Positions 26,182 to 42,942 of a stretch of DNA of 64,000 nt are shown here, piece after piece (the stretch's first letter is position 1; every line of letters begins with the position of its first letter). Both the position numbers and the translations under genes were made by a program. This DNA comes from Anaerolineales bacterium (GTDB lineage: Bacteria; Chloroflexota; Anaerolineae; Anaerolineales; Villigracilaceae): positions 6,615 through 70,614 of the forward strand of contig JAVEWN010000006.1 in NCBI GenBank assembly GCA_034004515.1, read 5' to 3'. The notes under the pieces are model-generated. The model saw nothing but the letters and a program-made list of their open reading frames with translations, did no database searches and had not been told where the DNA came from.

Positions 26182-27360
26182 ATGCAGGCAAATGTTAAAA
26201 AGAGTTATGTATCAAAACGCGCCGCAGAATTGAAGCCGAGCGGCATTCGGAAATTCTTCGATATTGTCGCCACCATGAAAGATGTCATCTCGCTCGGCAT
26301 TGGCGAACCGGATTTCACCACTCCAAAGCCAATTCTGGATGCCGGTATCCGCTCTCTCGCCAGTGGTGAGACCCATTACACCTCCAACGCGGGCAAAATA
26401 GAATTGCGCCAGGGGATCGCGAAGAACCTGCTGGAGCGCTACAACGTCAAATACGACCCGGCCACGGAGATTATCGCGACCGTCGGCGTTTCAGAAGCCT
26501 TATACCTGACCTTTATGGCCCTGCTCGACCCCGGCGATGAAGTCATCATCCCGACCCCGTGCTTTGTCTCGTACCAGGCCGAAGTCTATCTGGCGGGCGG
26601 TATTCCGGTTGAGATCCCCAGCCGGCTTGAGAATAATTTTTCGGTCGACCCGGCGGATATTCGCAAGGCCATCACGCCGCGCACCCGGGTCATTTTCATC
26701 GGCTATCCCAACAACCCGACCGGGGCGGTTGCCGAGCGCGCGACCATGATCGAAATTGCAAAAATCGCCGAAGAATTCGACCTGATGGTTGTCTCCGACG
26801 AAATTTACGACCGCCTGGTGTATGGGTTTGAGCATGTCTGCTTCCCCGCTCTGGGAGAAAGCATTCGCCGCCGGACCGTGCTGCTGGGCGGATTTTCCAA
26901 AAGCCACGCCATGACCGGTTGGCGGATCGGCTATGCCGCCGCCCCGCCTGAGATCATCGCCGGGCTGGTACGCATCCACCAATACACGATCATGTCCGCG
27001 CCGACCACCGCCCAGGATGCCGCCATCGAAGCCCTCAAAAGCGGCGAACCGCACGTGGAAGAGATGCGCAACGAGTATGACCGCCGCCGCAAATTAATTG
27101 TCGGCGGGCTAAACCGGCTTAGCCTGGATACTTTCGAGCCGCGCGGCGCGTTTTACGCCTTCCCCAACATCAGCGCCAGCGGCATGGACGATGAAACCTT
27201 CGCCGAGAAATTGCTGCAAGAAGAAAGCGTCGCGGTTGTGCCAGGCTCTGCATTTGGCACGGGCGGGGATGGCTTTGTGCGCTGCTCTTACGCGACCGCC
27301 TACGACAAAATCGAAGAAGCCCTGCGGCGCATGGAAAAATTTATGGAACGCCACGGGTAA
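26182..27360 (+). CDS. Class I/II pyridoxal-phosphate aminotransferase (aspartate aminotransferase-like)
   Basis: Start moved to the ATG at 26182 (GGAGGA upstream). PLP-lysine motif GFSKSHAMTGWRIGY. Confidence 0.9.
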   Translation: MQANVKKSYVSKRAAELKPSGIRKFFDIVATMKDVISLGIGEPDFTTPKPILDAGIRSLASGETHYTSNAGKIELRQGIAKNLLERYNVKYDPATEIIATVGVSEALYLTFMALLDPGDEVIIPTPCFVSYQAEVYLAGGIPVEIPSRLENNFSVDPADIRKAITPRTRVIFIGYPNNPTGAVAERATMIEIAKIAEEFDLMVVSDEIYDRLVYGFEHVCFPALGESIRRRTVLLGGFSKSHAMTGWRIGYAAAPPEIIAGLVRIHQYTIMSAPTTAQDAAIEALKSGEPHVEEMRNEYDRRRKLIVGGLNRLSLDTFEPRGAFYAFPNISASGMDDETFAEKLLQEESVAVVPGSAFGTGGDGFVRCSYATAYDKIEEALRRMEKFMERHG

Positions 27361-27382
27361 ACCATTTCCCCAATCATGGCAA

Positions 27383-27414
27383 GGGGCGGGCAATCAGCCC
27401 GCCCCTGTTTTTTT
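27383..27414. terminator. Bidirectional terminator between convergent genes
   Basis: GGGGCGGGC-AATCA-GCCCGCCCC followed by TGTTTTTTT. It overlaps the last codons of the minus-strand methyltransferase gene. Confidence 0.75.
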
Positions 27415-28038
27415 CCACCACAGCCCGCTGAATTCCGGCAGGGTCGTACTTTCAACTTCTGCGGCCAGCTGCTCTCCGAAGAAAAAACCAAGCAACTCGC
27501 GGGCCTCGGCCAGGCTTTCAAAGCGATAATCGGTCGTAATCTGCCGAAAGTCGCACCCTTTTTGAGCGAGCCAGGTGTAATAATCGTTCAAATGATCAAG
27601 ACGGATGGGGGCCGGGTGTCCGGTGCCGAGCGACTCAATCAGAATCACCATGCCGCCGGGGCGCAGAATGCGCACAATCTCGCTCCAGCCTGCTTCCAGT
27701 TGTGAGCGGTCTCCCCAGACTGAAAGATAGCTAAAGCTCCAGCCGGATACCACCAAATCGGCGCTGGCCGCGGCAATCGGCAGCTGGCGATGGTCGGCGA
27801 CCTGCGCCTGGCAGTTGTCCAGCCCGGCAGACCTGAAAGACTGAGCGGCCACCCTCAGCATGGCAGCGGAACCATCCAAGGCCCACAGGCTGCGGGCCTT
27901 CGGCCCAAGCAAACGCCCGAGACGGCCCGTCCCCGCCCCCAGGTCAACAATATCCAGCCCGGCGGTAGGAATAATCGCTTCAATCGCCCTGAGCAGGTTG
28001 CCGTGATGGTCCTCACGCTGAATCAAGCGCTCGTACAT
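27394..28038 (-). CDS. Class I SAM-dependent methyltransferase
   Basis: Motif I VDLGAGTGRL and the post-I acidic residue pattern. Confidence 0.85.
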   Translation of the reverse strand: MYERLIQREDHHGNLLRAIEAIIPTAGLDIVDLGAGTGRLGRLLGPKARSLWALDGSAAMLRVAAQSFRSAGLDNCQAQVADHRQLPIAAASADLVVSGWSFSYLSVWGDRSQLEAGWSEIVRILRPGGMVILIESLGTGHPAPIRLDHLNDYYTWLAQKGCDFRQITTDYRFESLAEARELLGFFFGEQLAAEVESTTLPEFSGLWWKKTGAG

Positions 28039-28084
28039 CCCGGCGTGCTGGGCGTAGACTTCCTTTTCGCTGGGGATGACGGCC

Positions 28085-28843
28085 TCAGGCTTTTTTGCGG
28101 CGTTGGAGGATGCTGTAAATCGCCAGCCCTAAAGCCAGGGCAGCAGCCAGCCAGGCGCTATTGGCCACAAGCGGAACGCCGGCCTGTTTGACGGCGATCC
28201 CAATAAAAGACCAGACAAAAACGAAGAGATAGGCTGCATCGCGGCGGGTAAAGGCCATCAAAATCCCCAAAACGGAGGCGACGACCAGCATGATTACCGC
28301 CCAGGCCTCCGGCGCAATCCCCAACCCGTTCCAGCCGGCGTCGTACAACCAGCTGGTGAAATTGGCAATCGTCGCAACGCTGACCCAGCCCAGATAAACG
28401 CTAAAGGGAATATCCACGCTCCAGCGTTCGGCGGTGCTAATGGCAGTGCGGCCTACATCCAGCTTAAGATAGCTGACAATCAGCGTGCCGAGCAAAGCCA
28501 GCATGACCAGGACGCTCAGATCAAACTGGTTGTAATGCCAGCAAAACAGCCAGAACGCATTGAAGACGCCGCTCAAGGCAAACCAGTAGCCAAGTTTTTG
28601 CAAACGCGGGTTATTCTTTTGGGCGGGCAAAAACTGGTAGATGGTAAAAGCGATCCAGCCAAGATAGACAACGCCCCAGATGGCAAAGACGTAGCCCGCC
28701 GGGACGAAAAAGACCTTGAAGCGGTCTGAGATTTCGCCGGTATCCTGCCCATTGAGGGGCAAGGTGCTTGCGAGGATATTGATGGTCAGGGCCAGGACAA
28801 CCGAAAGGGCATTGGCCGCTTGTCGTAAAGTGTTTTTGGACAT
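28085..28843 (-). CDS. Trp-rich multi-pass membrane protein, TspO/MBR-related
   Basis: AGGAGA RBS. N-terminal pattern LPLNGQDTGEISDRFKVFFVPAGYVFAIWGVVYLGW, as I recall from TspO-like proteins. 7-8 predicted helices. Confidence 0.6.
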   Translation of the reverse strand: MSKNTLRQAANALSVVLALTINILASTLPLNGQDTGEISDRFKVFFVPAGYVFAIWGVVYLGWIAFTIYQFLPAQKNNPRLQKLGYWFALSGVFNAFWLFCWHYNQFDLSVLVMLALLGTLIVSYLKLDVGRTAISTAERWSVDIPFSVYLGWVSVATIANFTSWLYDAGWNGLGIAPEAWAVIMLVVASVLGILMAFTRRDAAYLFVFVWSFIGIAVKQAGVPLVANSAWLAAALALGLAIYSILQRRKKA

Positions 28844-29063
28844 ATTTTTCTCCTATTCTTTCTTCAAAAATGAAAACATGTTCTTATTGTACCGCCAAGC
28901 AGCCCAAATGCTATTTAAAAATGGGTTTTTCCCAGGCCGGGCTTTGGCAAAGCGAGATGATTTCATAAAAAACAGCCAACCGGGCGGTTTTGCGCCAGAA
29001 TGTGGGATAATGAACATAACCTAAGTTTTAAGCTGTAAAATTCCCAAAGAACAGGATGTCACC

Positions 29064-29204
29064 TTGGCCAAAGTTAATTATAAACACGAAAAACGTCAGA
29101 AAGAACTCGACAAAAAAAAGAAAAAAGAGCAGAAGATAAAAAAGAAGCAGGAAAAGAAAGAGATAACGCCTGCCGAAAATAAAACTGAGACTTCACAAGA
29201 GTAG
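29064..29204 (+). CDS. Possible Lys-rich micro-protein (46 aa)
   Basis: TTG start at 29064, open to TAG at 29202-29204 (MAKVNYKHEKRQKELDKKKKKEQKIKKKQEKKEITPAENKTETSQE). A strong terminator follows directly. Weak RBS (AGGA). Confidence 0.35.
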   Translation: MAKVNYKHEKRQKELDKKKKKEQKIKKKQEKKEITPAENKTETSQE

Positions 29205-29206
29205 CC

Positions 29207-29247
29207 AACAAGCAGGGCGTCCCAACTGGGACGCCCTGCTTGTTTTC
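29207..29247 (+). terminator. Strong stem-loop terminator between convergent genes
   Basis: Perfect 17-bp stem AACAAGCAGGGCGTCCC / GGGACGCCCTGCTTGTT with a 4-nt loop, followed by TTC (so GTTTTC on the plus strand). Confidence 0.8.
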
Positions 29248-29265
29248 AAACCTTCAGCTCTGTTC

Positions 29266-29892
29266 TCAGGGAGTCGGAATTGGGGTGCCTTCACCCGCCA
29301 CAACAATTTCCACGCTGACAAATTCGCCGAAAAGCTCGCCGCGGCCATTCGCCAGACGCCAGACGCCGGAGTATTCGCCGGGTGTGTTGGGCGCAAATAA
29401 TCGGACGCTGACATTGGCCTGACCCTGCGGCGCAACCGTCTGACCGATCTCGCGGGTATTGCCCTGCATCAGGTTGCCGGTCACAAAAACAATCGTGTAA
29501 CCTGGCTTCCAGGTGCAAGTGCCTGTGTTTTGAAATGTCCAGGTTTTTTCAAAGACCTGGCCGCGCGCCAGAATCGTACCGTCTGGGATGGTGACATCTG
29601 CCACAAAGGCAGAATTATCACAAAAATTGTTCGTGACAGAGGTGGGGACAATCGGCGTGAGCGAGGGGGTTTCGGTAATTGTAGCGGTGGGCGTGACCGT
29701 CGCGCTGGGGGTGGAGGTCGGTTCCAGCGTCGGCGTTTGGGTAGCCTGGGCGGCGATGGTCTGGGCAATCGCCGCTTCGACCTGGGCGGTGGCTTCCTGG
29801 GCGGTGCTGATGCTGATCGATCCGCAGCCAGCCAGGAGCGCCGTCAGGAGCGGCAAGCTGAAAAGCAAATTTTTGATGGATGGTTTTAACAT
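29266..29892 (-). CDS. Lipoprotein with an NBR1-type Ig-like domain
   Basis: Start set to the ATG at 29892 (GAGGAA upstream). Lipobox LLTALLAGC and a Thr/Pro/Ala linker. The C-terminal domain DVTIPDGT...FEKTWTFQNTGTCTW...GEYSGVWRL matches the NBR1/Ig-like pattern. Confidence 0.75.
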   Translation of the reverse strand: MLKPSIKNLLFSLPLLTALLAGCGSISISTAQEATAQVEAAIAQTIAAQATQTPTLEPTSTPSATVTPTATITETPSLTPIVPTSVTNNFCDNSAFVADVTIPDGTILARGQVFEKTWTFQNTGTCTWKPGYTIVFVTGNLMQGNTREIGQTVAPQGQANVSVRLFAPNTPGEYSGVWRLANGRGELFGEFVSVEIVVAGEGTPIPTP

Positions 29893-30063
29893 GGTCTTAT
29901 TCCTCAATCGCTGGTTCAAACAGATTGGAAAGCACCCATTCTAACACCTTCCTGGCCTTGAAAACGCTGATTCAAACGAGACCAGTATGACGTTCCTCAA
30001 CCCAAATTGTAAACGAGATCGCCTTTTGACGTTTTTTTGACGCTGCCTGGTTACAAAAGAAAC

Positions 30064-30270
30064 ATGACCACGACCCCCTACCGCTCTTACCTGCTGCGCC
30101 TGTGGCTCGAACCGAGCAACCCGCCTGAATGGCGCGCCATGCTCGAAAGCCCGTCCAGCGGCGAACGGCACGGATTCTCCAGCCTGAAGGCGCTCTTTGC
30201 TTTTGTGGAGCAGGAGGCCGAGCGGTTGGAAAGTGAAACCAACGCGCGGACAGACCCGAATTTTCCTTAA
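30064..30270 (+). CDS. Small hypothetical protein (68 aa)
   Basis: ATG at 30064 inside ORF 30037-30270. Sequence YRSYLLRLWLEPSNPPEWRAMLESPSSGERHGFSSLKALFAFV. No assignable function. Confidence 0.45.
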   Translation: MTTTPYRSYLLRLWLEPSNPPEWRAMLESPSSGERHGFSSLKALFAFVEQEAERLESETNARTDPNFP

Positions 30271-30314
30271 ATTTATTCGCGTCTTCTGCGCCCTCATCAA
30301 AAGGAGATTCACCC

Positions 30315-32321
30315 ATGAAAAAGTTCATTCCGCTTTGTCTCGTTTTTTTATTATTACTGACCAGCCTGGCCTGCAACTTTGGCGCGCAGCCCGCCGCCGA
30401 ACCGACTCCGGTCGAGACGGACGCCTGCTGCACCAACGAGCCGCCCACCCTGCAAGAAACCGTCGCGCCTGACGCGGCTGCCACCCCCGTCCCGCCCGGC
30501 GGGCCGCAAACTTCCGGGCTGGAAACTGGCCGGTATCCCTTCACCAACGCCAACGTCGTGCTCGATTTGGTCGTCTACAAAGGCGTCATCCATGCCGCCA
30601 CGTTGGGCGGGCTGGTCACCTGGCGGCTGGACAGCGGCTATTCGATGCGCTATACCCCACTGGATGGGATGGGACACGTCAGCGCCAACGCCATTGTCTA
30701 CTGCGAAATCCCGCAGCCGAGGATTTTGGTCGGGACCCTGAGCGGGATCAGCGTCTACGACCCGAACAGCGGTCTGTGGGAAAAAGGCTTAACCTTCCCT
30801 GCCGAAAGCCGGGTGGATGTCAGCAGAATCGAACGGCTGTACTGTGACCAGGCCAACAACCGCCTGCTGATTGGCTACAACGGCCTGGGCATCTACGACT
30901 TGAAAAGCGGCGGCTTCCAGCATTTCACCAGCAAGGAAGGCCTGTTGTGGGATTCGGTCAGAGGCATCACCGTCAACGGCCAGGACATCTGGATCGCGAG
31001 CGGCTACAAGGGCATCGCAAAAATCTCCAACGGACAGGTGAAAACCTACAGCGCCGCCGACGGAATGCCCGACGAACGCGCCAATGCGCTGGCCTTTGCC
31101 CAGGATGGGACGCTGTGGGTCGGCGCTTCGAGCGGCATCCAATCCTTTAAGGCGGATAAATGGACGCTTTACGGCTCAGACAGCCCGGCCGCTTTGGGCA
31201 ATGTCGACCAAATCCGGGTTGCGCCAGACGGCAAACTGTGGCTCACCACCCTGCCGCTCGGCGTCGGCAGGCTGTGCCAGTTCAACCCGAAAACCGCGGC
31301 CTGCGACGTGGATTTCAAGGAAATCGATCAGCAGGGCATTTTGGCCCTGGCCCTGACCGAATCGGGCGGGCCGGTCTATGGCACGAGCAAGGGCGTCTAT
31401 GTTTTCGAGAACGGCGCGGCCAAAGCCTTCAAAACCGACGACCAACTCGCCAGCAACTACGTTGATTCGTTCGCCTCCGCGCCCGACGGCATGTTGTGGG
31501 TCGGCAGCGACGCCGGCATCCACGTCCTCGACCCGGCCAACCCGGCCGCCAAGTGGCAAACCTTCCGCCAGACTGAAACCCCCGAAATGGGCGGCAGTTG
31601 GGGCAAGGCAATCGCTATCGCCCCGGACGGAAGCGTCTGGCTGGCAGCGACCAACGGTTCCGCCAGCCGCTACCAAAACGGGGCGTGGACCGCCTTCAAA
31701 GACATCTACTCCTTCGACACGGTCGCGGTCGATGGCCAGGGCCGGGCCTGGTTCGGCGATGACAGCAAGGGCGTGGTCGTCCTGAACGGCGACGGTTCAC
31801 AGGCGATGAGCTTCAGCAGCGCCAACGGCCTGCCCGGTGACAACGTCCAGGCGATTGTGGTCGATTTATCGGGCCGGGTCTGGATCGGGACGAACGAGGG
31901 CCTCGCCAAATACGAAAATGAGATGCTTGAAGTGGTTTTCGGCAAAGATACGAAAGAAATCCCCAACAAATACATCCGCGCCCTGGCGGTAGATTCGACT
32001 GGCGCACTGGTGATTGGCACCTTTACCGGCGTCGCCCGCTATGACGGGACCCGGGCCGAAGTGCTGGTCGATTTTCTCAAAGACGGCTTCAGCGAAGCGC
32101 GCCTGACGACGCTGGCTGTGTCTCCCGCTGGCGCGGTCTGGGTGGGGACCGACAAGGGCCTGCTGGCCCAACAAAACGGGGCCTGGAAACTGCTCACTAC
32201 CGCCGACGGCCTGCTGACCAACTACATCTCGGCCCTGCACGTCGACCAGTACGGCGCGGTCTGGGTCGGGGGCGGCGGCTCCAACTTCGACGGCGGCGGG
32301 ATGTTGCAAATTGTGCCATAA
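30315..32321 (+). CDS. Lipoprotein made of 'two-component regulator propeller'-type repeats
   Basis: AAAGGAGA RBS and lipobox LLLTSLAC. At least 9 repeats of the pattern hWhGT..GL..a (TLWVGASSGIQSF, MLWVGSDAGIHVL, RVWIGTNEGLAKY, AVWVGTDKGLLAQ, ...). Confidence 0.8.
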   Translation: MKKFIPLCLVFLLLLTSLACNFGAQPAAEPTPVETDACCTNEPPTLQETVAPDAAATPVPPGGPQTSGLETGRYPFTNANVVLDLVVYKGVIHAATLGGLVTWRLDSGYSMRYTPLDGMGHVSANAIVYCEIPQPRILVGTLSGISVYDPNSGLWEKGLTFPAESRVDVSRIERLYCDQANNRLLIGYNGLGIYDLKSGGFQHFTSKEGLLWDSVRGITVNGQDIWIASGYKGIAKISNGQVKTYSAADGMPDERANALAFAQDGTLWVGASSGIQSFKADKWTLYGSDSPAALGNVDQIRVAPDGKLWLTTLPLGVGRLCQFNPKTAACDVDFKEIDQQGILALALTESGGPVYGTSKGVYVFENGAAKAFKTDDQLASNYVDSFASAPDGMLWVGSDAGIHVLDPANPAAKWQTFRQTETPEMGGSWGKAIAIAPDGSVWLAATNGSASRYQNGAWTAFKDIYSFDTVAVDGQGRAWFGDDSKGVVVLNGDGSQAMSFSSANGLPGDNVQAIVVDLSGRVWIGTNEGLAKYENEMLEVVFGKDTKEIPNKYIRALAVDSTGALVIGTFTGVARYDGTRAEVLVDFLKDGFSEARLTTLAVSPAGAVWVGTDKGLLAQQNGAWKLLTTADGLLTNYISALHVDQYGAVWVGGGGSNFDGGGMLQIVP

Positions 32322-32415
32322 GCATAGGGTGAGGAGGGCGGTTAAAGCCGCCTCCTCGCCCACGCCAAAACCGCACTCCTTAAAAGTTTGGATCGTATCC
32401 TGAAAGGAAAAATCG

Positions 32416-33111
32416 ATGAAAAACAAAACAATTCTGCTGGCCGTCTTCGTCCTGGCTGGCCTGCTGCTCTCGGCCTGCAAAGTCAACTTTATCACCGACC
32501 TCCAAAGCAGCGGCGCTGGCACTTACACCCAGGAAATTGGTTTCGAGGGTGACGAAGCCTCAATGGCCGGGCTGAGCGACGGCAGCGAGGATTTCTGCGC
32601 CAAACAGAACGAAGAACTGCCGCCCGGCACCTCCATCCGCCAGGAGACGCGCAACGAAGCCGAAACCTGGTGCGTTTACGAAACACCGTTCAAGTCCATC
32701 GAAGAGTTGCAAGCCATCTATGGCGCGACCGATACCCGCATCAACGAAATTTCCATCGTCGATGGCAAACTGACTTACGATATCAGCCTCGACCTGAGCG
32801 GCGACAGCGGCGCGCCCATGGGGGCCGACATTTTCTGGATCGTCAACATGCCGGGAAAACTGATCGAAAACAACGCCAGCCAGCAATCTGACAACACCCT
32901 GAAATGGAAACTGGTCGGCGGCGAACTCAATAACATCCGCGCGGTCAGCGAAATTGGCGGGCTGAACTTCGATCTGGGCGGCGATTGGGTTGGGTACGTC
33001 TTGGGCGGCGGCTTTTTGCTGTGCGTGTGCTGTTTCGTGCCGCTGGTCATCGCCGCGCTGGCCTTCTTCCTGATTCGGCGCAAGAAACAGGCCGAACCTT
33101 CCGCCGCTTAG
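32416..33111 (+). CDS. Lipoprotein with a C-terminal transmembrane anchor
   Basis: Lipobox AGLLLSAC, a ~170-aa soluble domain, and a C-terminal helix GGGFLLCVCCFVPLVIAALAFFLI followed by RRKK. The architecture is reminiscent of LppM/DUF3153-type proteins (recollection only). Confidence 0.65.
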   Translation: MKNKTILLAVFVLAGLLLSACKVNFITDLQSSGAGTYTQEIGFEGDEASMAGLSDGSEDFCAKQNEELPPGTSIRQETRNEAETWCVYETPFKSIEELQAIYGATDTRINEISIVDGKLTYDISLDLSGDSGAPMGADIFWIVNMPGKLIENNASQQSDNTLKWKLVGGELNNIRAVSEIGGLNFDLGGDWVGYVLGGGFLLCVCCFVPLVIAALAFFLIRRKKQAEPSAA

Positions 33112-33147
33112 CCACGGGCTGCTGATCGCGCATTACAGGAGACTGAA

Positions 33148-33792
33148 ATGGACGATATCCTCCTCAACCTGATTGTTTTCGCCGCTTTGGCAATAGTTGG
33201 CGGGCTGGTGTTTGTTCTCGTCCGCCAGCGACAAGCCCAAAGCAGGCAGGAAATCATTCAAATGGCCGCCGAAAAAGGCTGGCAAATCGAAACCCTGCGC
33301 GAACCGCTCCGGTGGGGAGAGCGGCTCATTTCCCCAGGCTGGCGTCTGGAAGCAACTTCCCGCGCCAGCGGGCGGGAACTGGACTCCGGTTCGAGCGATG
33401 TTGCCATGCAGACGGTCTGGAGCGCCGACCAGCCCGGCCCGACCCTGCTAATCGGCGAACGCAGCTCCCAGGCAAATCTCGGCTCTCTGGGCGGGATGCT
33501 CCAGCAGCAGGTTTTACAGCTTGCCCTCGGCCCAGATGCAAATGGGCTGACCGAAATCCGGGCTGGGAGCGCGGCCTTCCAGCAGAAATACATGCTCTGG
33601 GCCCAAAACCCGGCTGATGTGCGCCTCTCCACGCAGCTGGAGTCGATCCTGCTCGAATGGAAAGGGATCAAGCCGATCATTAAACGCACCTCCGCAGGCC
33701 TGACCATTGAATTACAGGGCGCGCACCTGAAAACCGCGCCCGATTTGTTACGGCTGGTCGATTTAGGCGAGACCTCGCTGAAAACGCTCTAA
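33148..33792 (+). CDS. N-terminally membrane-anchored hypothetical protein
   Basis: AGGAGA RBS. N-terminal helix LNLIVFAALAIVGGLVFVLV. No recognisable domain. Confidence 0.6.
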   Translation: MDDILLNLIVFAALAIVGGLVFVLVRQRQAQSRQEIIQMAAEKGWQIETLREPLRWGERLISPGWRLEATSRASGRELDSGSSDVAMQTVWSADQPGPTLLIGERSSQANLGSLGGMLQQQVLQLALGPDANGLTEIRAGSAAFQQKYMLWAQNPADVRLSTQLESILLEWKGIKPIIKRTSAGLTIELQGAHLKTAPDLLRLVDLGETSLKTL

Positions 33793-33809
33793 AAAGAAAA
33801 GAGTTTGCG

Positions 33810-34922
33810 ATGAAAACCAAAATGAAAATCCTCCTGTCCGGCCTGTGGGGGCTTGGGTTGCTGCTCTCAGGCTGCGCCTTGCCGGGCGCGCTTCAACCCG
33901 GCGCGCCTGCGTCAGCAAACAAAGCTGAACAACCTGCTGCCTCGGCTACAACACTCACAGAATCAGCGCCCGGCGAGTCGCCCGCCGCAATCTCTCCAAC
34001 ACCAGCCGAGACACTACCCGTTGCCAGTGAGGCGGCCCCGACAGAAATTGCGATCAGCCACCAAAGCAGGCCGGGGAATCCGCTTTACAGCCAGGCCCTG
34101 CCCGGGGAATGCAACACCGGCTTCAATTACAAAATCGGATTCCGGGTGCGGCCGCCCTGCGATACCTGGGGCACCAATATGCTCGAACGCGCCGTCTCGG
34201 CAGATATGAGCAGCTTCTATCACTATATCGACATCCTTAGCGCCCGGGTCGGCAAATCCGGCGACTGGTTTTACGCCAGCTTCGATCTGTTCGGAGCCGG
34301 GATGGCCGAGGAGGGCGTTCCGCTGACCTATTTCTTCGAACTGGACCTGGACCAGAATGGGCGCGGAGACATTTTGCTGGCGGTGCAAGACCTTGACCTG
34401 TACATCAGCGAGTGGAGCGTGACCGGCGTCCGCGCCTGGCGCGACCTGAACGGCGATGTCGGCGGCCCGACCGCCGTCCGCCCGGACGGCCAATCTGGGG
34501 ACGGCTACGAGACCCTGGTTTTTGATCAGGGCCTGGGCGACGATCCCGACCTGGCCTGGGTGCGCCACAACCCGGACAACTACCAAAGGATTGAGTTTGC
34601 CTTCAAACCGGCCCTGCTGGACAGGAAAGAATCCTTCATGTTGTGGGCGGGAGCCATGCGCGGCCGCTTCGACCCGCAGGCCTTTGACCTGGTCGACAGC
34701 CAATCCGAAACCGCGTTGTACGAGGTGGACACCACCTGCGGCTGGGTTTTCGGTCACGAAAAAGGCTACAACCTCAAGAAATGTTTCGTCGCGCCTGACC
34801 CGACCAAGGCTCCCCAAGAGGAGAGCGGCCCCGCCATCTGCATCAAGCCGCCGCACCCGAACCCACAAGATGGCGGCTGGGTCTGGAACGAAGCCAAATG
34901 CAAATGGGAACTGTGGAATTAG
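33810..34922 (+). CDS. Hypothetical lipoprotein
   Basis: Lipobox LGLLLSGC and a Pro/Ala/Ser/Thr linker. The Cys-containing C-terminal domain is of unknown family. Confidence 0.6.
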   Translation: MKTKMKILLSGLWGLGLLLSGCALPGALQPGAPASANKAEQPAASATTLTESAPGESPAAISPTPAETLPVASEAAPTEIAISHQSRPGNPLYSQALPGECNTGFNYKIGFRVRPPCDTWGTNMLERAVSADMSSFYHYIDILSARVGKSGDWFYASFDLFGAGMAEEGVPLTYFFELDLDQNGRGDILLAVQDLDLYISEWSVTGVRAWRDLNGDVGGPTAVRPDGQSGDGYETLVFDQGLGDDPDLAWVRHNPDNYQRIEFAFKPALLDRKESFMLWAGAMRGRFDPQAFDLVDSQSETALYEVDTTCGWVFGHEKGYNLKKCFVAPDPTKAPQEESGPAICIKPPHPNPQDGGWVWNEAKCKWELWN

Positions 34923-34939
34923 GCAAAAAGAGAGCACAG

Positions 34940-36412
34940 ATGAAAAACAGATTTTTCCTGGCATTCCTGGCGCTCCTGCTCGCTTCGCTGGCCTGTAAGA
35001 CCGTCCAGCCCGCAGCGCCAGATGCCCCATCCAGCGCGCCGCCTGTCCTCCGCGCAGCAATCACCGCGACAGCGACTGTCCGACCTGCGCCGACCGGCCC
35101 GCTTCCGCAACCAGCCGCCGCCCGCCCGGGGACAATCTACTGGCCGATGCAGGCCTTCTCCGAAACCGGCGACCCCGATTTTGCCACCGGTCAGCCGGAC
35201 GTGAGCAACTGCGCCGAAGCGATGCAGCCCACCTGGGCGGCCTCCGCCTCCGACCAGCCCGCCAGCCTGACCCTGACCTACCCGACGCCCGTCCTCGCCA
35301 GCCAAATCGACCTGTACACACTCGGACAGCCCGGCGACCTGCTGCGGGTCGAGGTGCGGAACAGCCTCTCCGGGTTGGGACGGGTGATCCATGACGGCGG
35401 GCAGGCTGCGCTGAGCCTGCCCGAAGCCCTGAGCGACCCGTCGCAGGGAAGTTGCCCGGCCAAACTCTCCCTGCCGGTGAAGGTCGATTTCGAAGTCGAC
35501 CTGGTCATCGTCACGGTCGCCGCCTCCCCCAATCCCCTCCAAATCGATGCGGTTGGCCTGGCCGGGGAACTGCTTGGCCTGATCGAACCGCCGGTTTTCT
35601 GGCGCGTGCCGCTGCCCGGAACGCCGGTCAGCCTGGCGGTCAACCAAAACGGGTTGGTTTTTGCCGCGACCGAGCCGGACGGCCTGTTCACGTATGATGT
35701 CGAAGGAAACCAACTCAAGCAGCATTCCATTCCCAACGGAGCCCAACTAACCGACGTGACCGCCGACCCCTTCGGCAACTTTGTGATAATCGATGACGGC
35801 TACGGCTGGTTTATCCTGATGTCGCCCGAAGGCGAACATCTGACCATCGGCGGCGAGTACCTGTACGGCCAGGGAGCGGTCAGCCCCGCCGACGGCAATC
35901 TTTATGTCCTGAAAGATAAATCCATCCTGGTTTACACCAGCGACACCGCCGAATTCCTGCGCGAAATGGCGATTGATGAACTGCCCGCCTACAGCAGCCT
36001 GGCCTTTGACCCCGCCGGGCGATTGTTCAGCCTTCGCAACCCGCAATGGCAGCCGGAACTGCTCCAACTCGACCCACAGACCGGGGCCGAACTGGATGCC
36101 ATCCCGCTCGCCCGCGCCAACCAATACCCCGTCGAAATTGTTGCGCGTGACCTGGCGATTGACGCCAGCGGTAATTTTTATGTGCTGTTCCAGATGAACA
36201 CCGGCCAAATCGCGATCCATGTCCTCGATTCGCAGGGCAGCTTCGTCAGCCGCTTTGGCCGCCTGACCTCCGACCCTGACGACTGGCCGGAAGGCGCGTT
36301 TTTCGACGCGCGCGCCCTGGCCGTCAGCCCCGATGGCCGTTTCGTGCTGGTCGCCGATGGGTACGATGAAACTTCCTACCTGACCGCCTTTCTGCTGGAG
36401 CCGGAACCATGA
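34940..36412 (+). CDS. Lipoprotein with a C-terminal NHL-like six-blade propeller
   Basis: Start moved to the ATG at 34940 (MKNRFFLAFLALLLASLAC). Repeats PFGNFVIIDDG, PADGNLYVLKD, DPAGRLFSL, DASGNFYVLF and SPDGRFVLVADG. Confidence 0.7.
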   Translation: MKNRFFLAFLALLLASLACKTVQPAAPDAPSSAPPVLRAAITATATVRPAPTGPLPQPAAARPGTIYWPMQAFSETGDPDFATGQPDVSNCAEAMQPTWAASASDQPASLTLTYPTPVLASQIDLYTLGQPGDLLRVEVRNSLSGLGRVIHDGGQAALSLPEALSDPSQGSCPAKLSLPVKVDFEVDLVIVTVAASPNPLQIDAVGLAGELLGLIEPPVFWRVPLPGTPVSLAVNQNGLVFAATEPDGLFTYDVEGNQLKQHSIPNGAQLTDVTADPFGNFVIIDDGYGWFILMSPEGEHLTIGGEYLYGQGAVSPADGNLYVLKDKSILVYTSDTAEFLREMAIDELPAYSSLAFDPAGRLFSLRNPQWQPELLQLDPQTGAELDAIPLARANQYPVEIVARDLAIDASGNFYVLFQMNTGQIAIHVLDSQGSFVSRFGRLTSDPDDWPEGAFFDARALAVSPDGRFVLVADGYDETSYLTAFLLEPEP

Positions 36413-38319
36413 AACTGCGCTTTTTGGGAATCGGAATGTTGTTCACGCTCTGGCTTTCTGCCTGTGGCCCGGGCTTTGGGCCTGCCCCCAGCTTAACCCC
36501 GGCGGAAGAGACGCCCCGTATCTTATCCACCGTTACCCAGGCCGCCGCCATCCTGACACCTTCCCCGCCTCCAACGCAATCGTCCACAGCCTCCCCAATT
36601 CTCCAATCTACCGATTTGCCAACTTCCAATTTACCAATCACCCCATTACCCATTACCCAATTACCAATCGCCACTTGTTTAGCTGACAGCCTTCAATCTT
36701 TCGCCTACCTGCCCAATTCCATCGTCCTGCTTGAAATCCTGCCCCTCGAAGACGGCAGCCTGCTCCTGCGCGGCCTGCTCGACGACAAACCCGGCACCTG
36801 GCTCGCCAAAACCGACCCCGCCGGAATGATTCTCTGGCAAAACGTTTATGGCAGCGGCTCGTGCAGCCTGCGCCCCGGCCCCAACGGCAGTTTCGTGCTC
36901 GAATTTGGAAGAACCAGCCTCGAAATCGCCGGGGATGGTTCGCTGGTTGGGAACGGCTACAGCGTCCCCTGGTTTCAACGCAACGCCGATGACAGCCTGA
37001 CCCTCCTCTCCGGCGGACGGGTGGCCCATCTCAACAGCGCCAAAAACTGGGCTTACAGCATCAAGGATTTCGGCGGCTTCGCGCTTCCGGCCTCCGATGG
37101 CGGCGCATGGTTTGCTTACGCGGGTGTCTATACAGATACGTCGGTTTATTATGCCCCGCAATGCACCGATATCAAGGTCATCAAAATCCTGCCGGGTGGT
37201 GAGGTCATCCAGCGCGTGTACGGCAAACTGGTCGGCGACGAAACCCTCGAATTTCTCTATCCGGCCAACGACGGCGGCGCGCTGCTGGCCGGTTCGCACG
37301 CCTACGAAGAACTCGCCCCCGATTACGACATCTGGCTGATGAAACTAAACGCCAGCGGCGGGCTGTCCTGGCAGACGACGCTCAAGCTGCCGCCCCATCA
37401 TGAAACCCTGACTGGGATTTATTTCCTTAAAACCGGCTATCTGGCCGTCCTGACAACGCCCGTCGAAAACGACAATCCGCTGCTGGTGCGGCTGAAACCC
37501 AACGGCAGCCTGGCCTGGCAGAAAATTCTGACCTCCAGCCGCGGCACGGTCCAAATCAGCGCTGTGGCCGAAACCGCAGATGGCGGCCTGCTGCTGGCCG
37601 GTGAAACCTGGGAAAAGAACAACGTCTACTGGCTGGCCCGGCTCGACTCGCGCGGCAACCTGCTCTGGGAGAAAACCCTCGGCTACTACGGCTTGGCCGA
37701 CGCGCCAGGCACAAGCGTAACCGCCATTCTGCCGCTTGCGGACGGCGAAATCCTGCTCGGCGGCAGCAGCGATTTGGTCGGGAATGCCATTAACGCAGCC
37801 TCGTCCGCCTGGTTGGCGCAGATTCCCGATTCCGGGCAGGTTTTCGGCCTGATCAGCCTGCAACCCGGCAAATTTACGGTCATTTCCAGCCTCGCCAGCC
37901 GCCCGAACAACTTGCCGAACGAGGTCTTGGCCCTAGACAAAATTTTCTGGGACGAGACGGAGGCCGAAGTCACGCCGATCGATCTCCAGCCGGTCTCGGT
38001 CTGCCTGCCCGCCGAAGCCTCCTTCCCCACCCCGGCAGCGCTCCCCAGCCTGACGCCTTCTCTGACCCCCACGCCTTCTTTCACCCGCGATCTGTACCTG
38101 TCCAATCCGCCCATGCAGGGCGACGATGTGCGGATGCTGCAAGAGCGCCTGCTCGAGCTGGGCTACAGCGAAGTCGGCCTGCCGGATGGCATCTTTGGCA
38201 AAATGAGCGAGGCCGCCGTGCGCCGCTTCCAGCAAAACAACGGCCTGGAAGTGGATGGTTACCTCGGCCCCAAAACATGGCGCACGCTCTTCAGCCCCGA
38301 TGCGGCCCGTGGAGGGTAG
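36409..38319 (+). CDS. Lipoprotein with a repeat propeller and a C-terminal peptidoglycan-binding domain
   Basis: ATGA overlap with the previous gene. Lipobox TLWLSAC. Repeats of the type DGG.LLAG...W(L/M)..L...G...W. The C-terminal LQERLLELGYSEVGLPDGIFGKMSEAAVRRFQQNNGLEVDGYLGPKTWRTLF matches the PG_binding_1 pattern. Confidence 0.75.
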   Translation: MKLRFLGIGMLFTLWLSACGPGFGPAPSLTPAEETPRILSTVTQAAAILTPSPPPTQSSTASPILQSTDLPTSNLPITPLPITQLPIATCLADSLQSFAYLPNSIVLLEILPLEDGSLLLRGLLDDKPGTWLAKTDPAGMILWQNVYGSGSCSLRPGPNGSFVLEFGRTSLEIAGDGSLVGNGYSVPWFQRNADDSLTLLSGGRVAHLNSAKNWAYSIKDFGGFALPASDGGAWFAYAGVYTDTSVYYAPQCTDIKVIKILPGGEVIQRVYGKLVGDETLEFLYPANDGGALLAGSHAYEELAPDYDIWLMKLNASGGLSWQTTLKLPPHHETLTGIYFLKTGYLAVLTTPVENDNPLLVRLKPNGSLAWQKILTSSRGTVQISAVAETADGGLLLAGETWEKNNVYWLARLDSRGNLLWEKTLGYYGLADAPGTSVTAILPLADGEILLGGSSDLVGNAINAASSAWLAQIPDSGQVFGLISLQPGKFTVISSLASRPNNLPNEVLALDKIFWDETEAEVTPIDLQPVSVCLPAEASFPTPAALPSLTPSLTPTPSFTRDLYLSNPPMQGDDVRMLQERLLELGYSEVGLPDGIFGKMSEAAVRRFQQNNGLEVDGYLGPKTWRTLFSPDAARGG

Positions 38320-38424
38320 CGAACTTTAAATTGGTCGCTTTTCAGGATCAGTTCATTCACAATTCGCGCTTCGAAAACGCGCTTTTCATCAACAACAATC
38401 CGCCTGTGGCCTGGTGCGGGCGGT

Positions 38425-38928
38425 TTAGGCGGGCGGATTTTGCGCGAGGAAAGACTCAATGCAGGCCGCAAGACCGTCGACATCGTCCAGGTCAAACACG
38501 GGGACGCTTGTCTTGAGGGCGATATCGCTTGCATAGGCGATTAAATTCTCAGGAGCGCTGATTGGCTCAGAACTCAACCCGCTCCGTATAATTTCAATCG
38601 AAGGTTTGCCGGCATTCTTGTAACCTTCGACAAGGATTAAATCAACATCGGCAATCTCGCGGACGATTTCATCGAGGGTCAGCTCTTTTTTGAGAAGGCG
38701 ATAAGAGGCCAGCTTATCGGGCGCGGCAATGACGACATGTTCGCTGCCCGCCCGGGCATGCCGCCAGCTATCTTTTTGGGGCTGGTCAATTTCAAAGCCG
38801 GCGTGTGAGTGGTGTTTCACCGTCGCAATGTGATAGCCCCTGCGTTTTAGCTGCGGGATGAGCTTTTCGAGTAGGGTGGTCTTTCCAGCGCCAGACCTGG
38901 CAATGATGGTAATGACAGGAATCGACAT
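38425..38928 (-). CDS. mobB: Molybdopterin-guanine dinucleotide biosynthesis adapter protein MobB
   Basis: Start moved to the ATG at 38928 (GAGGAG upstream). Walker A ARSGAGKTTL, then VKHHSHAGFEID and LILVEGYK as in MobB. The longer ORF would overlap the upstream gene. Confidence 0.85.
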   Translation of the reverse strand: MSIPVITIIARSGAGKTTLLEKLIPQLKRRGYHIATVKHHSHAGFEIDQPQKDSWRHARAGSEHVVIAAPDKLASYRLLKKELTLDEIVREIADVDLILVEGYKNAGKPSIEIIRSGLSSEPISAPENLIAYASDIALKTSVPVFDLDDVDGLAACIESFLAQNPPA

Positions 38929-38936
38929 GAGTCTCC

Positions 38937-39671
38937 TCAGGGCAAGAACAGGATCAAGATCAAGAGAGAGGCCTCCCCAAGAATGAGCCATCCGTCCAGT
39001 GTGCCAATTTTGAGGGGCGTCGTGCGGCTTAGCTCGGGCCGAAAGGCGCGCGCTTCTGCCGCAAGCACAATCTGATCGGCGTGGCGCAGCGAATTGGTCA
39101 GAATCGTCAGCAACAACAATTGGATTGCGCGCCACCAATTGGCGCGCAATCCGCCGCGCATGCGCAGGCTGTGCCAGGCATTCGTGCTGGATTGGCGCAG
39201 GTCGGGCAGCAGGTTGGCCGCCACCCCGATTGAAAAACCCAACCCCTGCAATCCGCCGCGTTCGATCAAACCGGCCAGCTCGGTAATATTGACCGAACTC
39301 GAAAGGCCGTCCGCCGCCAGCAAAATGGCAACGGCCCGCAGGGTCATCTGGGCGCCATTCATCAAGGCAACCGAAGAAACGGGCAAGCCCAAAATCATCC
39401 AATCAGGGCCGCTTTCCGGGACGCCAAAAAACACGTTGACCAGAAACAAGCCGCCCAGGATGAGCAGCCAGCGCGGGCGGGCCAGGCGCTGCAAGGCAAA
39501 CGGATAAGCCGCCACCAGGACCACGAGCGTGAGCAGGGCCGGCACAAGCCCGCGTGAGAGCGGCGGCAGGAGAACCATGCCGATTGCCCACAGAAAAATG
39601 CTCAAATGAGCCAGGCTCCCAAAGCGGGGCCTGGCTTTTTGGGGTTCGCGCATGGATTGGGCCGCTTTCAT
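38937..39671 (-). CDS. ecfT: ECF transporter transmembrane (T) component, CbiQ/EcfT family
   Basis: Multi-pass membrane protein with the C-terminal Arg-containing coupling region (AWHSLRMRG...ADQIVLAAEARAF) typical of CbiQ/EcfT. Confidence 0.75.
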   Translation of the reverse strand: MKAAQSMREPQKARPRFGSLAHLSIFLWAIGMVLLPPLSRGLVPALLTLVVLVAAYPFALQRLARPRWLLILGGLFLVNVFFGVPESGPDWMILGLPVSSVALMNGAQMTLRAVAILLAADGLSSSVNITELAGLIERGGLQGLGFSIGVAANLLPDLRQSSTNAWHSLRMRGGLRANWWRAIQLLLLTILTNSLRHADQIVLAAEARAFRPELSRTTPLKIGTLDGWLILGEASLLILILFLP

Positions 39672-39673
39672 CC

Positions 39674-40114
39674 TTATGGGATTGCGATAATCTCTGTCAG
39701 CTGGCGCGGATTCAGCTTGCCGCCTTCTTTTGGCAGCACCATCCGAAAGGGTGCGTCTTCGGCGCTGAGCGGGCCATCGGCCTGGGCATAGGCCACAATC
39801 GTATCGGGGAGGTTATAAAGCGCGGCATCATAGTTGGCCGAAAAGCCGTCTGCGGCGACTGCTTTGACTGCGGAGAGCGCAGCGGGATCAATGCCGGCAT
39901 CCGCCAGCAAAACTGTCAACGGTACGCCGAGGTAGGTGATACCGTTGATCGTGGCTTGTGCATCCCCGAGCGCCTTGAGATCGGCGTTGGTGTAGGTTTT
40001 TTCAAGGGTGCCGTTCGACACTTTCAAAGCGTCGGCAGCGGGGGTCTGGGCGGCAGGCGCACAAGCTGCCAGGGCCACCATCAAAGCCAAACTCAAAAGT
40101 AAAAAGCGTTTCAT
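39674..40114 (-). CDS. Small lipoprotein with a molybdopterin-oxidoreductase-like (sulfite oxidase fold) domain
   Basis: Lipobox LMVALAAC. GVPLTVLLADAGI...AVAADGFSANY...GPLSAEDAPFRMVLPKEGGKLNPRQLTEIIAI resembles the Oxidored_molyb signature (GVPL..LL, DGY, G-P-x-R-L-V-V-P...K-W-L..I). Confidence 0.55.
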   Translation of the reverse strand: MKRFLLLSLALMVALAACAPAAQTPAADALKVSNGTLEKTYTNADLKALGDAQATINGITYLGVPLTVLLADAGIDPAALSAVKAVAADGFSANYDAALYNLPDTIVAYAQADGPLSAEDAPFRMVLPKEGGKLNPRQLTEIIAIP

Positions 40115-40136
40115 TAGTAGAGTCTCCTATCAGAAA

Positions 40137-40745
40137 TTAGATTTCAAGCGGTTCGGGCAGGGTTGCGCCCAGTCTTATTTTTAAAACTTGTCCAAGTTTC
40201 CAGCCCAGCCAACCGCCCAGGCCGCCGACTGCCAGGTGCAAAATGACCAGGGCCAGCACAATCCACAAGGCGGCCTGAGCCGGCAGCCGAAACAGGCGGC
40301 TGCCCGTATCCAGCAAATCGAGCCAGACGACAAACAGGTTGCGGCCAAACAAAAGCGCGCCGGTCACGAAAGGCTGGACAACCGTCCATAAGGATGCGCC
40401 GGCGCTGGCAAAGATAAAAGCCAGCATGGACGGCTTCGGGAAGATATCCAGAATCAGTTCCGCAACCAGGGCTTCGGTCAAGATGCCGACCATGGGCCCA
40501 ATCAGGATATTGCCAATGCTGAATAATTTCAGCGTCATCGCGATCAGGCCGATGAAAATAGTGGAGCCGCGCCGCGGCACAAACAGACGGGCAATCGAGG
40601 CCACCATTACGCCAATCACCGAAAGCATCATGCCGCTCAAGGGCAAATGGATGGCGTGCAGCACCGAACCCAGGCTGATCTCTACCAGGCCCCACAACGC
40701 CCCAAATACAGCCAGGGTTACGAGTTCGCGGGTTGAAAATTTCAT
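40137..40745 (-). CDS. ECF transporter substrate-capture (S) component, specificity unknown
   Basis: Start set to the ATG at 40745 (MKFSTRELVTLAVFGALWGLVEI...). About 200 aa with six hydrophobic helices, positioned between the ECF ATPase and T genes. Confidence 0.6.
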   Translation of the reverse strand: MKFSTRELVTLAVFGALWGLVEISLGSVLHAIHLPLSGMMLSVIGVMVASIARLFVPRRGSTIFIGLIAMTLKLFSIGNILIGPMVGILTEALVAELILDIFPKPSMLAFIFASAGASLWTVVQPFVTGALLFGRNLFVVWLDLLDTGSRLFRLPAQAALWIVLALVILHLAVGGLGGWLGWKLGQVLKIRLGATLPEPLEI

Positions 40746-40765
40746 AATTGTCCTTTCCACTCAAA

Positions 40766-42941: not shown

Positions 42942-42942
42942 A

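Follow-up and report, generated by a model that had tools for sequence, protein, structure and literature searches.

The window analysed here, a 64,000-nucleotide stretch of an Anaerolineaceae (Chloroflexota) MAG, carries a cluster of envelope-protein genes which we read, with a probability of roughly 0.55, as a modular operon that encodes extracytoplasmic proteins of binding type and is controlled by a SARP/AfsR-type activator. The original prediction had suggested that six of these genes encode a multi-protein cell-envelope complex; it mentioned the small gene ahead of them in passing, and overlooked both the role of that gene and the SARP-type promoter and regulator as the organising principle of the locus.

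Gene content and lipoprotein signature

The genes of the cluster, referred to below as g0 to g6, are as follows.

g0, 30064-30270, plus strand: cytoplasmic small protein of 68 aa, first gene of the operon
g1, 30315-32321, plus strand: lipoprotein (lipobox LTSLAC), free-standing, with Reg_prop-type beta-propeller repeats
g2, 32416-33111, plus strand: LppM-domain lipoprotein (lipobox LLSAC); Cys-rich TM helix at the C-terminus, basic tail
g3, 33148-33792, plus strand: single-pass membrane protein, alpha/beta domain without known relative, mosaic 3' end
g4, 33810-34922, plus strand: lipoprotein (lipobox LLSGC) comprising a Pro/Ala-rich tether, a beta-sandwich and a C-terminal tail that contains Cys
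g5, 34940-36412, plus strand: lipoprotein (lipobox ASLAC), N-terminal domain and putative NHL-like beta-propeller
g6, 36409-38319, plus strand: lipoprotein (lipobox WLSAC), repeat (propeller-like) region and C-terminal PG_binding_1

The six co-directional genes predicted between 30315 and 38319 are present as open reading frames at exactly these positions, with gaps of at most 94 nt and a single ATGA overlap. From g0 to g6 the intergenic distances are 44, 94, 36, 17, 17 and -4 nt, where the negative value marks the overlap of g5 and g6, and a purine-rich Shine-Dalgarno (SD) element can be read before each of g1 to g6. The flanking genes are unrelated, with an NBR1-Ig lipoprotein, TspO and a methyltransferase upstream and MobB and an ECF/Mo cluster downstream.

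The five lipoboxes and one N-terminal anchor that had been predicted can be read directly, the former in g1, g2, g4, g5 and g6 and the latter in g3. A crude regular-expression scan of the 2913 ORFs of the genome marks exactly these five genes and leaves g3 unmarked, against a genome-wide background of 127 lipobox-like ORFs (4.4%); five such genes among six consecutive ones are found at this single place, where ~0.003 windows would be expected by chance. The genome also contains three matches to Lgt (PF01790) and one to LspA/signal peptidase II (PF01252), all above cut-off. With a signal peptide and lipobox Cys each, g1, g2, g4, g5 and g6 are predicted lipoproteins of the Lgt/LspA pathway.

Putative promoter, regulator and the g0 family

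Directly upstream of g0 stands the pattern TTTGACG-N4-TTTGACG, whose heptamers start 11 bp apart at 30025 and 30036 and which occurs once in the 3.57-Mb genome. The features of this region are as follows.

30025-30046, plus strand: pair of 11-bp direct repeats (TTTGACGTTTT / TTTGACGCTGC), candidate site for binding by a SARP-type regulator
30052-30057, plus strand: -10-like hexamer TACAAA, 9 nt past the 3' heptamer and 6 nt ahead of the g0 ATG

The arrangement was compared with the rule for SARP promoters, namely direct repeats 11 (or 22) bp apart with the 3' repeat ~8 bp from the -10 element, as in the afs box at -40 to -19 (PMC10936776). The geometry here, with starts 11 bp apart and 9 nt to TACAAA, fits that rule. 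With TACAAA only 6 nt away from the g0 ATG, the mRNA would be leaderless, and g0 has no SD ahead of it, in contrast to g1-g6; transcription would start at or near the ATG, and on the assumption that it starts there the repeats lie at about -39 to -18. The conserved box stands before the first gene only. Its repeats are kept in all orthologous loci, before g0 or, where g0 is missing (L035), before g1, and the GTTACAAAA block of the -10 region is kept in the orthologous loci as well. Paralogous loci have CTGAACG-N4-CTGAACG in place of TTTGACG-N4-TTTGACG, with the repeats ~6 bp farther from the best -10 candidate.

The regulator, of about 1050-1100 aa, has the order wHTH-BTAD-NB-ARC-TPR, which is the 'large SARP' or AfsR architecture. 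In this genome it is encoded on another contig, C180, and its BTAD scores 65.1 bits (cut-off 22.1), Trans_reg_C 23.4 bits (slightly below the cut-off of 26.2) and NB-ARC 22.1 bits (marginally below the Pfam cut-off of 23.5, with AAA_16 alongside), followed by TPR_12 at E 4e-40 and TPR_MalT. NB-ARC is present in the precomputed Pfam matches of its orthologues, and the EmbR SARP domain (2fez, residues 14-264) matches it at E 1e-10. The C180 protein carries both the wHTH and BTAD pair and the NB-ARC and TPR pair that define a large SARP, a class described as exclusive to actinobacteria (PMC10972967).

In almost every related locus the regulator gene is divergent from and adjoins g0: it does so in G001, G002, G003, G005, G008, G010, L032, L034, L038, L043 and L044, lies ~2.6 kb upstream of g0 in L037, and is likewise divergent beside g0 in the 35%-identical paralogous loci L039-L041. 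The predicted recognition-helix region of the paralogous regulators differs (LRQxLS vs LRVLLN), as their repeats do. The regulator is a candidate to bind the repeats at 30025-30046. In the genome under study it sits between guaB and tatD, unlinked to g0, so that control here would be exerted in trans.

The g0 protein, with the motif Y-x2-YLLRLW ... WRAxLE ... GF..L..LF.F and 60-89% identity across 53 clusters, belongs to a large, unnamed family: a profile search retrieves 5683 cluster representatives, and g0 has no match in Pfam or NCBIfam. Among 301 Chloroflexota genomes, 23 contain the family. Of the 23 loci fetched, one of them the window's own, about 15 have a BTAD regulator within 1.5 kb of the family member. 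In Chloroflexota the family usually accompanies BTAD regulators.

The closest known system is AfsR-afsS of Streptomyces coelicolor, in which a large SARP (SARP domain, NOD/NB-ARC and TPR) activates an adjacent small-protein gene via a 22-bp box that is made up of a direct repeat of 11 bp in two copies. The likeness extends to the domain order of the regulator, to repeats of 11-bp period that overlap the -35 region at nearly the same distance as the afs box, and to the immediate target, which adjoins the regulator gene and encodes fewer than 100 aa. The differences lie in the phylum, in the mostly divergent orientation of the regulator and its unlinked position in this genome, and in an operon that runs on into envelope lipoprotein genes instead of controlling an antibiotic cluster. 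g0 is not known to resemble AfsS.

Core genes

Reg_prop repeats are matched in g1 at E 5e-22 in Pfam, and in the PDB the protein matches domains of Bacteroides hybrid two-component sensors (4a2l/3v9f) at E 2e-27. Its size leaves room for two propellers. It shares the propeller repeats with these sensors and differs from them in being a lipoprotein that ends after its Reg_prop repeats, the searches finding no Y_Y_Y domain, TM segment, kinase or receiver. PorZ (PMC8545088) is an example of such double propellers as a free-standing surface protein, which binds the glycan A-LPS. An assignment of g1 to PorZ of the T9SS was rejected (NCBIfam NF052228, 76.9 bits vs a cut-off of 260; no T9SS context). 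Within the genus g1 is 66-80% identical, and its paralogues (35-41% identity) likewise follow a regulator-g0 pair.

The middle three genes had been thought to lack nameable domains, which holds for g3 and g4 in Pfam but not for g2, an LppM-domain protein (PF21946, 30.1 bits vs a Pfam cut-off of 27, aligned over model positions 62-152 only) whose orthologues match LppM in 7 of 7 cases, at best with E 1e-9. The Pfam domain is common to g2, its orthologues and M. tuberculosis LppM (Rv2171; 2nc8), but the relationship is very distant (g2 matches 2nc8 weakly, at E 0.23) and the phylum differs. According to a 2016 paper in Structure, LppM reportedly combines a lipobox with a C-terminal TM helix, an unusual architecture that g2 and its orthologues share. 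Phosphatidylinositol mannosides, to which LppM binds (PMC6151718), are not an expected constituent of Chloroflexota.

An acidic N-terminus, a TM segment and the residues RQRQ precede the alpha/beta domain of g3. g3 has 84 homologues, with identities of 44% or more and no Pfam match among them, and its AF2 model (pLDDT 87.8) finds no fold match in the PDB, the best being TtfA (6t84) at a non-significant probability of 0.47. The description of the six products as envelope proteins is supported; judging solely from the positive-inside rule, the globular domain of g3 probably faces the cytoplasm and does not lie on the surface. Some relatives' operons contain a further gene, gX, for a 3-TM protein with a predicted cytoplasmic domain; others are without it, and in this genome it has been deleted.

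Optional cassette

The g4 protein, with a conserved DxDxDGRGD loop, represents a multi-copy Anaerolineales family that is found in 22 of 41 related genomes, in up to 5 scattered copies each. Its 164 homologues are without Pfam match, some being fused to CarboxypepD_reg or SdrD_B domains, and its AF2 model (pLDDT 84.9) has weak, non-significant fold matches to a putative carbohydrate-binding protein (4iyk, E 0.018) and glucodextranase.

Three propeller types had been predicted in the cluster; that of g1 is firmly matched, while matches for the other two are weak. For g5, Pfam NHL reaches 8.7 bits, below the cut-off of 20, the NHL domain of TRIM3 in the PDB matches at E 1.9e-5, and a 56%-identical homologue in L045 matches NHL at E 0.004. 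The N-terminal domain of g5 is 31% identical to a PAPPA-annotated protein of L042 (Pfam PF25900 as indexed in related loci), and g5-like genes come after g3 or g1 in L034, L037, L038 and L045. The repeat region of g6 has weak matches to DUF5122, delta-60 and PQQ_2, all below cut-off. The predicted PG_binding_1 domain of g6 is borne out in full: the C-terminal 58 residues match the whole model (positions 1-57 of 57, 74.6 bits vs a cut-off of 23, E 7e-21) and, in the PDB, the PG-binding domains of endolysins and SleB. Unlike wall proteins such as SleB, endolysins and those with L,D-transpeptidase-associated domains, g6 joins this domain to a repeat or propeller partner, with no hydrolase or transpeptidase domain attached.

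Domain searches found no catalytic domain in the products of g0-g6, only binding-type domains, and none of the PADLOC anti-phage models matches g0-g6, the regulator giving a generic TPR match only.

Strain and genus variation

In a blastn comparison with a sister strain (L071), both flanks are 99.5% identical and one segment of the window is absent, the identity within g3 ending at 33665.

33666-38413, plus strand: strain-variable segment (g3 3' end, g4, g5 and g6), replaced by 234 nt in L071

Sequencing runs X4 and X8-X11 show the joint of the short form (33629 to 38414); X1 contains both forms, the short one as the minor of the two, and X2 the long form. In runs labelled 'metatranscriptomic', a single contig spans g0-g3 and contigs break at the promoter region; these contigs are assemblies that give neither strand nor local depth, and DNA could be included.

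Synteny of the six genes, which the original prediction had made its own test, is borne out only in part: all six are kept together in two of ~10 related genomes, G003 and G001 (both of the same genus), while most other relatives hold subsets only. Specifically, G005, G002 and G010 have only g0-g1-(gX)-g2-g3, G008 has its genes divided over contigs and is without g1, and L043 has g0-gX-g2-g3, again without g1; more distant loci have g1-g3-g5, g0-g1-g5 or, as in L042, g3 alone. The order g0-g1-g2-g3 recurs in at least eight genomes.

Alternative explanations

A fixed stoichiometric complex of six surface proteins for sensing, adhesion or polymer capture, as originally proposed, would agree with the close spacing on one strand, the ATGA overlap, the envelope location or membrane association of every product and the retention of the whole set in G003 and G001. 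The near-identical strain without g4-g6 and the differing subsets in relatives make it unlikely nonetheless, as do the sporadic gX and the scattered, multi-copy g4 family. The opposite reading, that unrelated lipoprotein genes adjoin by chance, could appeal to the variable composition, but it is already disfavoured and very improbable given the unique lipobox run, the recurring core order and a common conserved promoter box before the first gene only. Capture of a nutrient polymer in the manner of a PUL, with surface glycan-binding lipoproteins feeding a transporter, is suggested by the propellers, the CBM-like beta-sandwich with its weak match to a Bacteroides carbohydrate-binding protein, and the sensing of glycans by Bacteroides Reg_prop proteins. 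At all loci examined, however, no glycoside hydrolase, transporter or SusC/D-like gene lies in or beside the cluster, and PG_binding_1 points to the cell's own wall, which leaves little probability for this reading too.

Somewhat less remote, yet still doubtful, is a split trans-membrane signalling system, in which g1 would be the extracellular sensor, g2, gX and g3 the relay, and g0 and/or the cytoplasmic domain of g3 would act on the TPR of the STAND regulator, making the operon autoregulated. Reg_prop is best known as a sensor domain of hybrid two-component systems (Pfam description), the linkage of regulator, g0 and g1 is tight even among paralogues, g3 and gX have predicted cytoplasmic domains, and TPR domains mediate protein-protein contacts (PMC10972967). 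Against this stand minimal paralogous modules (regulator-g0'-g1') without a membrane-spanning protein, a locus without g1 (L043) and one with g3 alone (L042), and the unlinked regulator of this genome. A bolder extension is comparably doubtful: outside actinobacteria, SARP-type STAND regulators might have the YLLRLW proteins as obligate partner and first target, in a widespread two-gene switch similar to AfsR-AfsS. In Anaerolineaceae this switch would be wired to a split sensor made of the extracellular Reg_prop lipoprotein and of g2, gX and g3 in the membrane, and feedback on the regulator TPR would come from the cytoplasmic parts of these membrane proteins, or from g0 itself.

Proposed model

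The available data are best explained by a model in which the activator-controlled modular operon is switched on by the regulator encoded on C180, which combines a SARP domain (OmpR-type wHTH and BTAD), an NB-ARC ATPase and a TPR sensor. Acting on the g0 promoter, it would occupy the two 11-bp repeats, which overlap the -35 region, as a side-by-side dimer and recruit RNA polymerase to a weak promoter. Transcription would begin at or beside the g0 ATG and yield a leaderless mRNA that carries first g0, for the putative hallmark cytoplasmic partner of regulators of this kind, and then the cargo genes. The genus core of this cargo would comprise the g1 double propeller, the LppM lipoprotein g2, which is also predicted to be TM-anchored, the novel, presumably cytoplasmic-facing domain of g3 and, in some genomes, gX; g4 with its beta-sandwich, g5 with a jelly-roll-like domain and NHL-like propeller, and g6 with its propeller and PG_binding_1 would form an optional, recombining cassette. 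Judged by their domains, the products are most likely ligand- or wall-binding modules on the outer face of the membrane, which may bind glycans or glycolipids and provide peptidoglycan tethering, and whose set varies from strain to strain.

The gene cluster and its products

The cluster consists of six forward-strand genes, preceded by a small open reading frame and neighbored by a divergent lipoprotein gene:

29266-29919, minus strand: NBR1-type Ig lipoprotein, diverging from g0
30064-30270, plus strand: g0, small open reading frame
30315-32321, plus strand: g1, lipoprotein with Reg_prop repeats
32416-33111, plus strand: g2, lipoprotein with an LppM domain
33148-33792, plus strand: g3, membrane-anchored protein of 214 aa
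33810-34922, plus strand: g4, lipoprotein of 370 aa
34940-36412, plus strand: g5, lipoprotein with weak NHL-like similarity
36409-38319, plus strand: g6, lipoprotein with a PG_binding_1 domain

The six genes lie exactly where the original prediction had placed them, and their tight packing is borne out, with 44 nt between g0 and g1, subsequent gaps of 94, 36, 17 and 17 nt, and a final ATGA overlap (-4 nt). A purine-rich ribosome-binding site stands in front of each of g1-g6, and none in front of g0. As predicted, g1, g2, g4, g5 and g6 have an N-terminal signal peptide that ends in a lipobox, and g3 has a hydrophobic anchor at its N-terminus; Lgt (three copies) and LspA are encoded in the genome. 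In a crude genome-wide scan, lipobox-like reading frames amount to 4.4%, and only in this cluster are five of six consecutive genes flagged (~0.003 expected). The flanks are unrelated, comprising UvrD, nucleotidyltransferase, aminotransferase, methyltransferase, TspO and NBR1-Ig lipoprotein genes upstream and, on the opposite strand downstream, MobB, a Mo-oxidoreductase-fold protein and an ABC ATPase. The NBR1-type gene keeps its place in a sister strain (contig L071), and tblastn over the fetched loci of other species found no copy; since neither it nor MobB is kept beside the cluster in other species, they are not part of it. Searches for paralogues of g0-g6 in the same genome and for defense-system matches to g0-g6 (PADLOC) found none, and terminator and promoter consensus scans gave no signal over shuffled background.

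The g1 product carries Reg_prop repeats (Pfam, E 5e-22), and among solved structures it is nearest to the sensor domains that hybrid two-component systems of Bacteroides have in the periplasm (E 2e-27). Unlike those sensors, it lacks everything C-terminal of the propellers, which agrees with its earlier description as a free-standing propeller of the two-component-regulator type; its score also falls far under the PorZ equivalog cut-off. The last 17 residues of g1 (GGGGSNFDGGGMLQIVP, window 32271-32321) are invariant among all orthologues inspected and could form a propeller closing strand or a recognition tag. The three middle proteins had been thought to lack nameable domains, which holds for g3 and g4 but not for g2, an LppM-domain protein (30.1 bits vs a gathering score of 27; seven of seven orthologues tested also match) with a lipobox and a Cys-rich C-terminal transmembrane helix. 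Such a Cys-rich helix is found both in g2 (LLCVCCFVPLVI, window 33039-33075) and in gX (VPVMCCCLFGLF, locus L036, 9526-10500), and each is kept across orthologues. Several genomes have, between g1 and g2, a gene gX (~310 aa, three transmembrane segments) that the window lacks, having lost it at the g1-g2 spacer (32322-32415); a remnant of 82 aa with the first two transmembrane helices persists in genome G005 (locus L044, 6998-7246). Homology of gX to g3 was ruled out (hhalign probability 0.7%).

The 84 homologues of g3 are all close and without a Pfam domain. AF2 models g3 confidently (pLDDT 87.8), and Foldseek found no PDB match to the model at E <= 0.001; TtfA (probability 0.47, TMq 0.39) was set aside as a fold relative and kept as a lead only. 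The acidic N-terminus (MDD) and the RQRQ/RRKQ residues after the transmembrane helix suggest, by the positive-inside rule, that the globular domain of g3 should be cytoplasmic. The g4 protein is one of a family that is multi-copy in Anaerolineales and has no Pfam assignment, and its model (pLDDT 84.9) is a beta-sandwich that weakly resembles carbohydrate-binding proteins; Foldseek returned only generic beta-sandwich or Ig matches. Searching the PDB with g3 and g4, by sequence and by profile, found nothing. The g5 protein is weakly NHL-like, and related loci encode small proteins that share its N-terminal domain and are indexed as Pfam 'PAPPA' (PF25900). The predicted C-terminal domain of g6 is a full PG_binding_1 (E 7e-21), and the region N-terminal of it gives weak propeller-repeat matches. 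No product of the cluster contains a catalytic domain.

Conservation and strain variation

All cluster genes were compared by tblastn with loci taken from ten genomes within the genus, plus eleven that belong to other MAGs. The complete g0-g6 set occurs in G003 and G001 only, and the other loci hold subsets. Specifically, G005, G002, G010 and L032 carry g0-g1-(gX)-g2-g3 followed by unrelated genes, L038 carries g1-gX-g2-g3-g5-g6, L034 and L045 carry g1-g3-g5, L037 carries g0-g1-g5, L043 carries g0-gX-g2-g3 with a PAPPA-type protein, and L042 carries g3 alone; G008 has g0-g4 on one contig and g2-g3-g5 on another, without g1. Outside the genus, g1 and g3 were not detected among the 40 nearest genomes.

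Two forms of the window's locus are present in public sequencing runs. The 33-kb Logan contig L071 is 99.5% identical to the window at 27148-33665 and 38414-43000, with the same flanking genes, and between these matching flanks the window has 4748 nt (the g3 3' end, g4, g5 and g6) versus 234 nt in L071, which encode a different g3 C-terminus. Bioreactor runs X4 and X8-X11 also contain the short-form joint, which landfill run X1 carries as a minor form beside the long form; the independent fuel-cell run X2 likewise has the long form. The window's g3 3' end shares 84% nucleotide identity with the G003 locus, and the g2-g6 part is nearer to G003 (83-86%) than g0-g1 (78%), which indicates that the locus is a mosaic. 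As one of two strain forms lacks g4-g6, these genes are not obligatory subunits but form a cassette that can be exchanged.

Four runs with a metatranscriptomic label, all from the short-form strain, have g0-g3 continuous on one contig, and contig breaks fall between the NBR1 gene and g0, at 29922-30044 or 30079. This pattern, from contigs that carry neither strand nor local depth and may include DNA carry-over, is compatible with a transcript that runs from g0 through g3; a search for an RNA run covering the g4-g6 segment found none.

The regulator and the small-protein family

SARP regulators have been described as tied to antibiotic clusters. In almost every locus related to the present one, a divergent gene of ~1050 aa just upstream of g0 encodes a regulator of this type, with Trans_reg_C, BTAD, NB-ARC and TPR domains, and three paralogous loci likewise have a regulator, with g0' preceding g1' (35-38% identical to g1). 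No regulator was found beside the cluster in the window; the orthologue (65% identical) lies at C180:5495-8815 on another contig of the genome, between guaB (IMPDH) and tatD, apart from its presumed target and unlike all relatives examined. Over its first 260 residues, this regulator matches the EmbR SARP domain (E 1e-10). A contig filed under a Chitinophagaceae MAG (L041) shares 93.5% nucleotide identity over 4.6 kb with the regulator-g0'-g1' locus L040 of Chloroflexota MAG OH_SDB_50 and is probably mis-binned.

The window sequence directly in front of g0 is TTTGACG-TTTT-TTTGACG, 9 nt, TACAAA, 6 nt, ATG. The 3.57-Mb genome contains this repeat pattern a single time, and all orthologous loci keep it; in L035 it directly precedes g1. 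The paralogous loci have CTGAACG-N4-CTGAACG instead, and the predicted recognition-helix region of their regulators also differs (LRVLLN vs LRQxLS). The geometry equals that of SARP targets, in which direct repeats are 11 bp apart, the 3' repeat is separated from the -10 element by ~8 bp, and the afs box spans -40 to -19 (PMC10936776). SARPs have been described as restricted to actinobacteria (PMC10972967). The candidate -10 element precedes the ATG by just 6 nt and g0 lacks a Shine-Dalgarno sequence, so that its mRNA is probably leaderless.

The 68-aa g0 product has an invariant Y-x2-YLLRLW motif, followed by WRAxLE and a helix-like GF..L..LF.F segment, and neither Pfam nor NCBIfam has a model for it. 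Searched with a profile, 1.84 billion cluster representatives yielded 5683 family members at E <= 0.001, nearly all 60-110 aa long. The family is present in 23 of 301 sampled Chloroflexota genomes, and ~15 of the 23 fetched loci (the window's own included) have in their 1.5-kb flank a BTAD regulator that is divergent or lies upstream on the same strand; several also have, upstream, repeats with an 11-bp spacing. AfsR and its small target gene, afsS, form a comparable pair. P0264 from the representative library (3802 aa, 35 matched stretches of the motif region) may be a giant repeat protein of g0-like units or a mis-called reading frame. G054, from another Chloroflexota family, has eleven g0-like genes (e.g. 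L048 and L070), of which at least L070 adjoins a BTAD regulator.

Interpretation

We put at slightly better than even, roughly 55%, a model in which the cluster is a SARP-activated operon headed by g0, with non-enzymatic envelope proteins as its modular cargo. The core would consist of the Reg_prop lipoprotein, the LppM-like lipoprotein and membrane protein g3, to which the optional cassette would add three more binding lipoproteins, including one with a peptidoglycan tether. The regulatory and organizational part of this model is well supported by comparative evidence; from fold classes only, we infer that the proteins may bind wall or extracellular glycans or glycolipids and contribute to surface variation.

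The original prediction saw one multi-protein envelope complex in all six products. Such a fixed machine now appears quite improbable, as g4-g6 are missing from L071 between nearly identical flanks. A nutrient-capture locus, comparable to a PUL, is about equally doubtful and was rejected because the cluster has neither enzymes nor transporters. A split sensor signaling to a STAND regulator is slightly less doubtful and still unlikely; chance adjacency of the genes is the most improbable of these readings.

The individual domains and the regulator class of the SARP-operon model are already known. What is new is that they are combined in Chloroflexota, that SARP-type regulators are linked to a large unnamed small-protein family, and that the locus has a recombining cassette and two uncharacterized folds. 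The confident AF2 models of g3 and g4 have no significant PDB fold match. Strain-level swapping of surface-lipoprotein genes by recombination inside g3 bears on surface variation in the filamentous Anaerolineae of bioreactors and landfills. Judged from sequence, SARP regulator architecture and promoter geometry also appear to occur in Chloroflexota, where they would drive cell-envelope genes. As the constant neighbor of these regulators, the small-protein family makes the role of the small partner directly testable, a question shared with AfsS.
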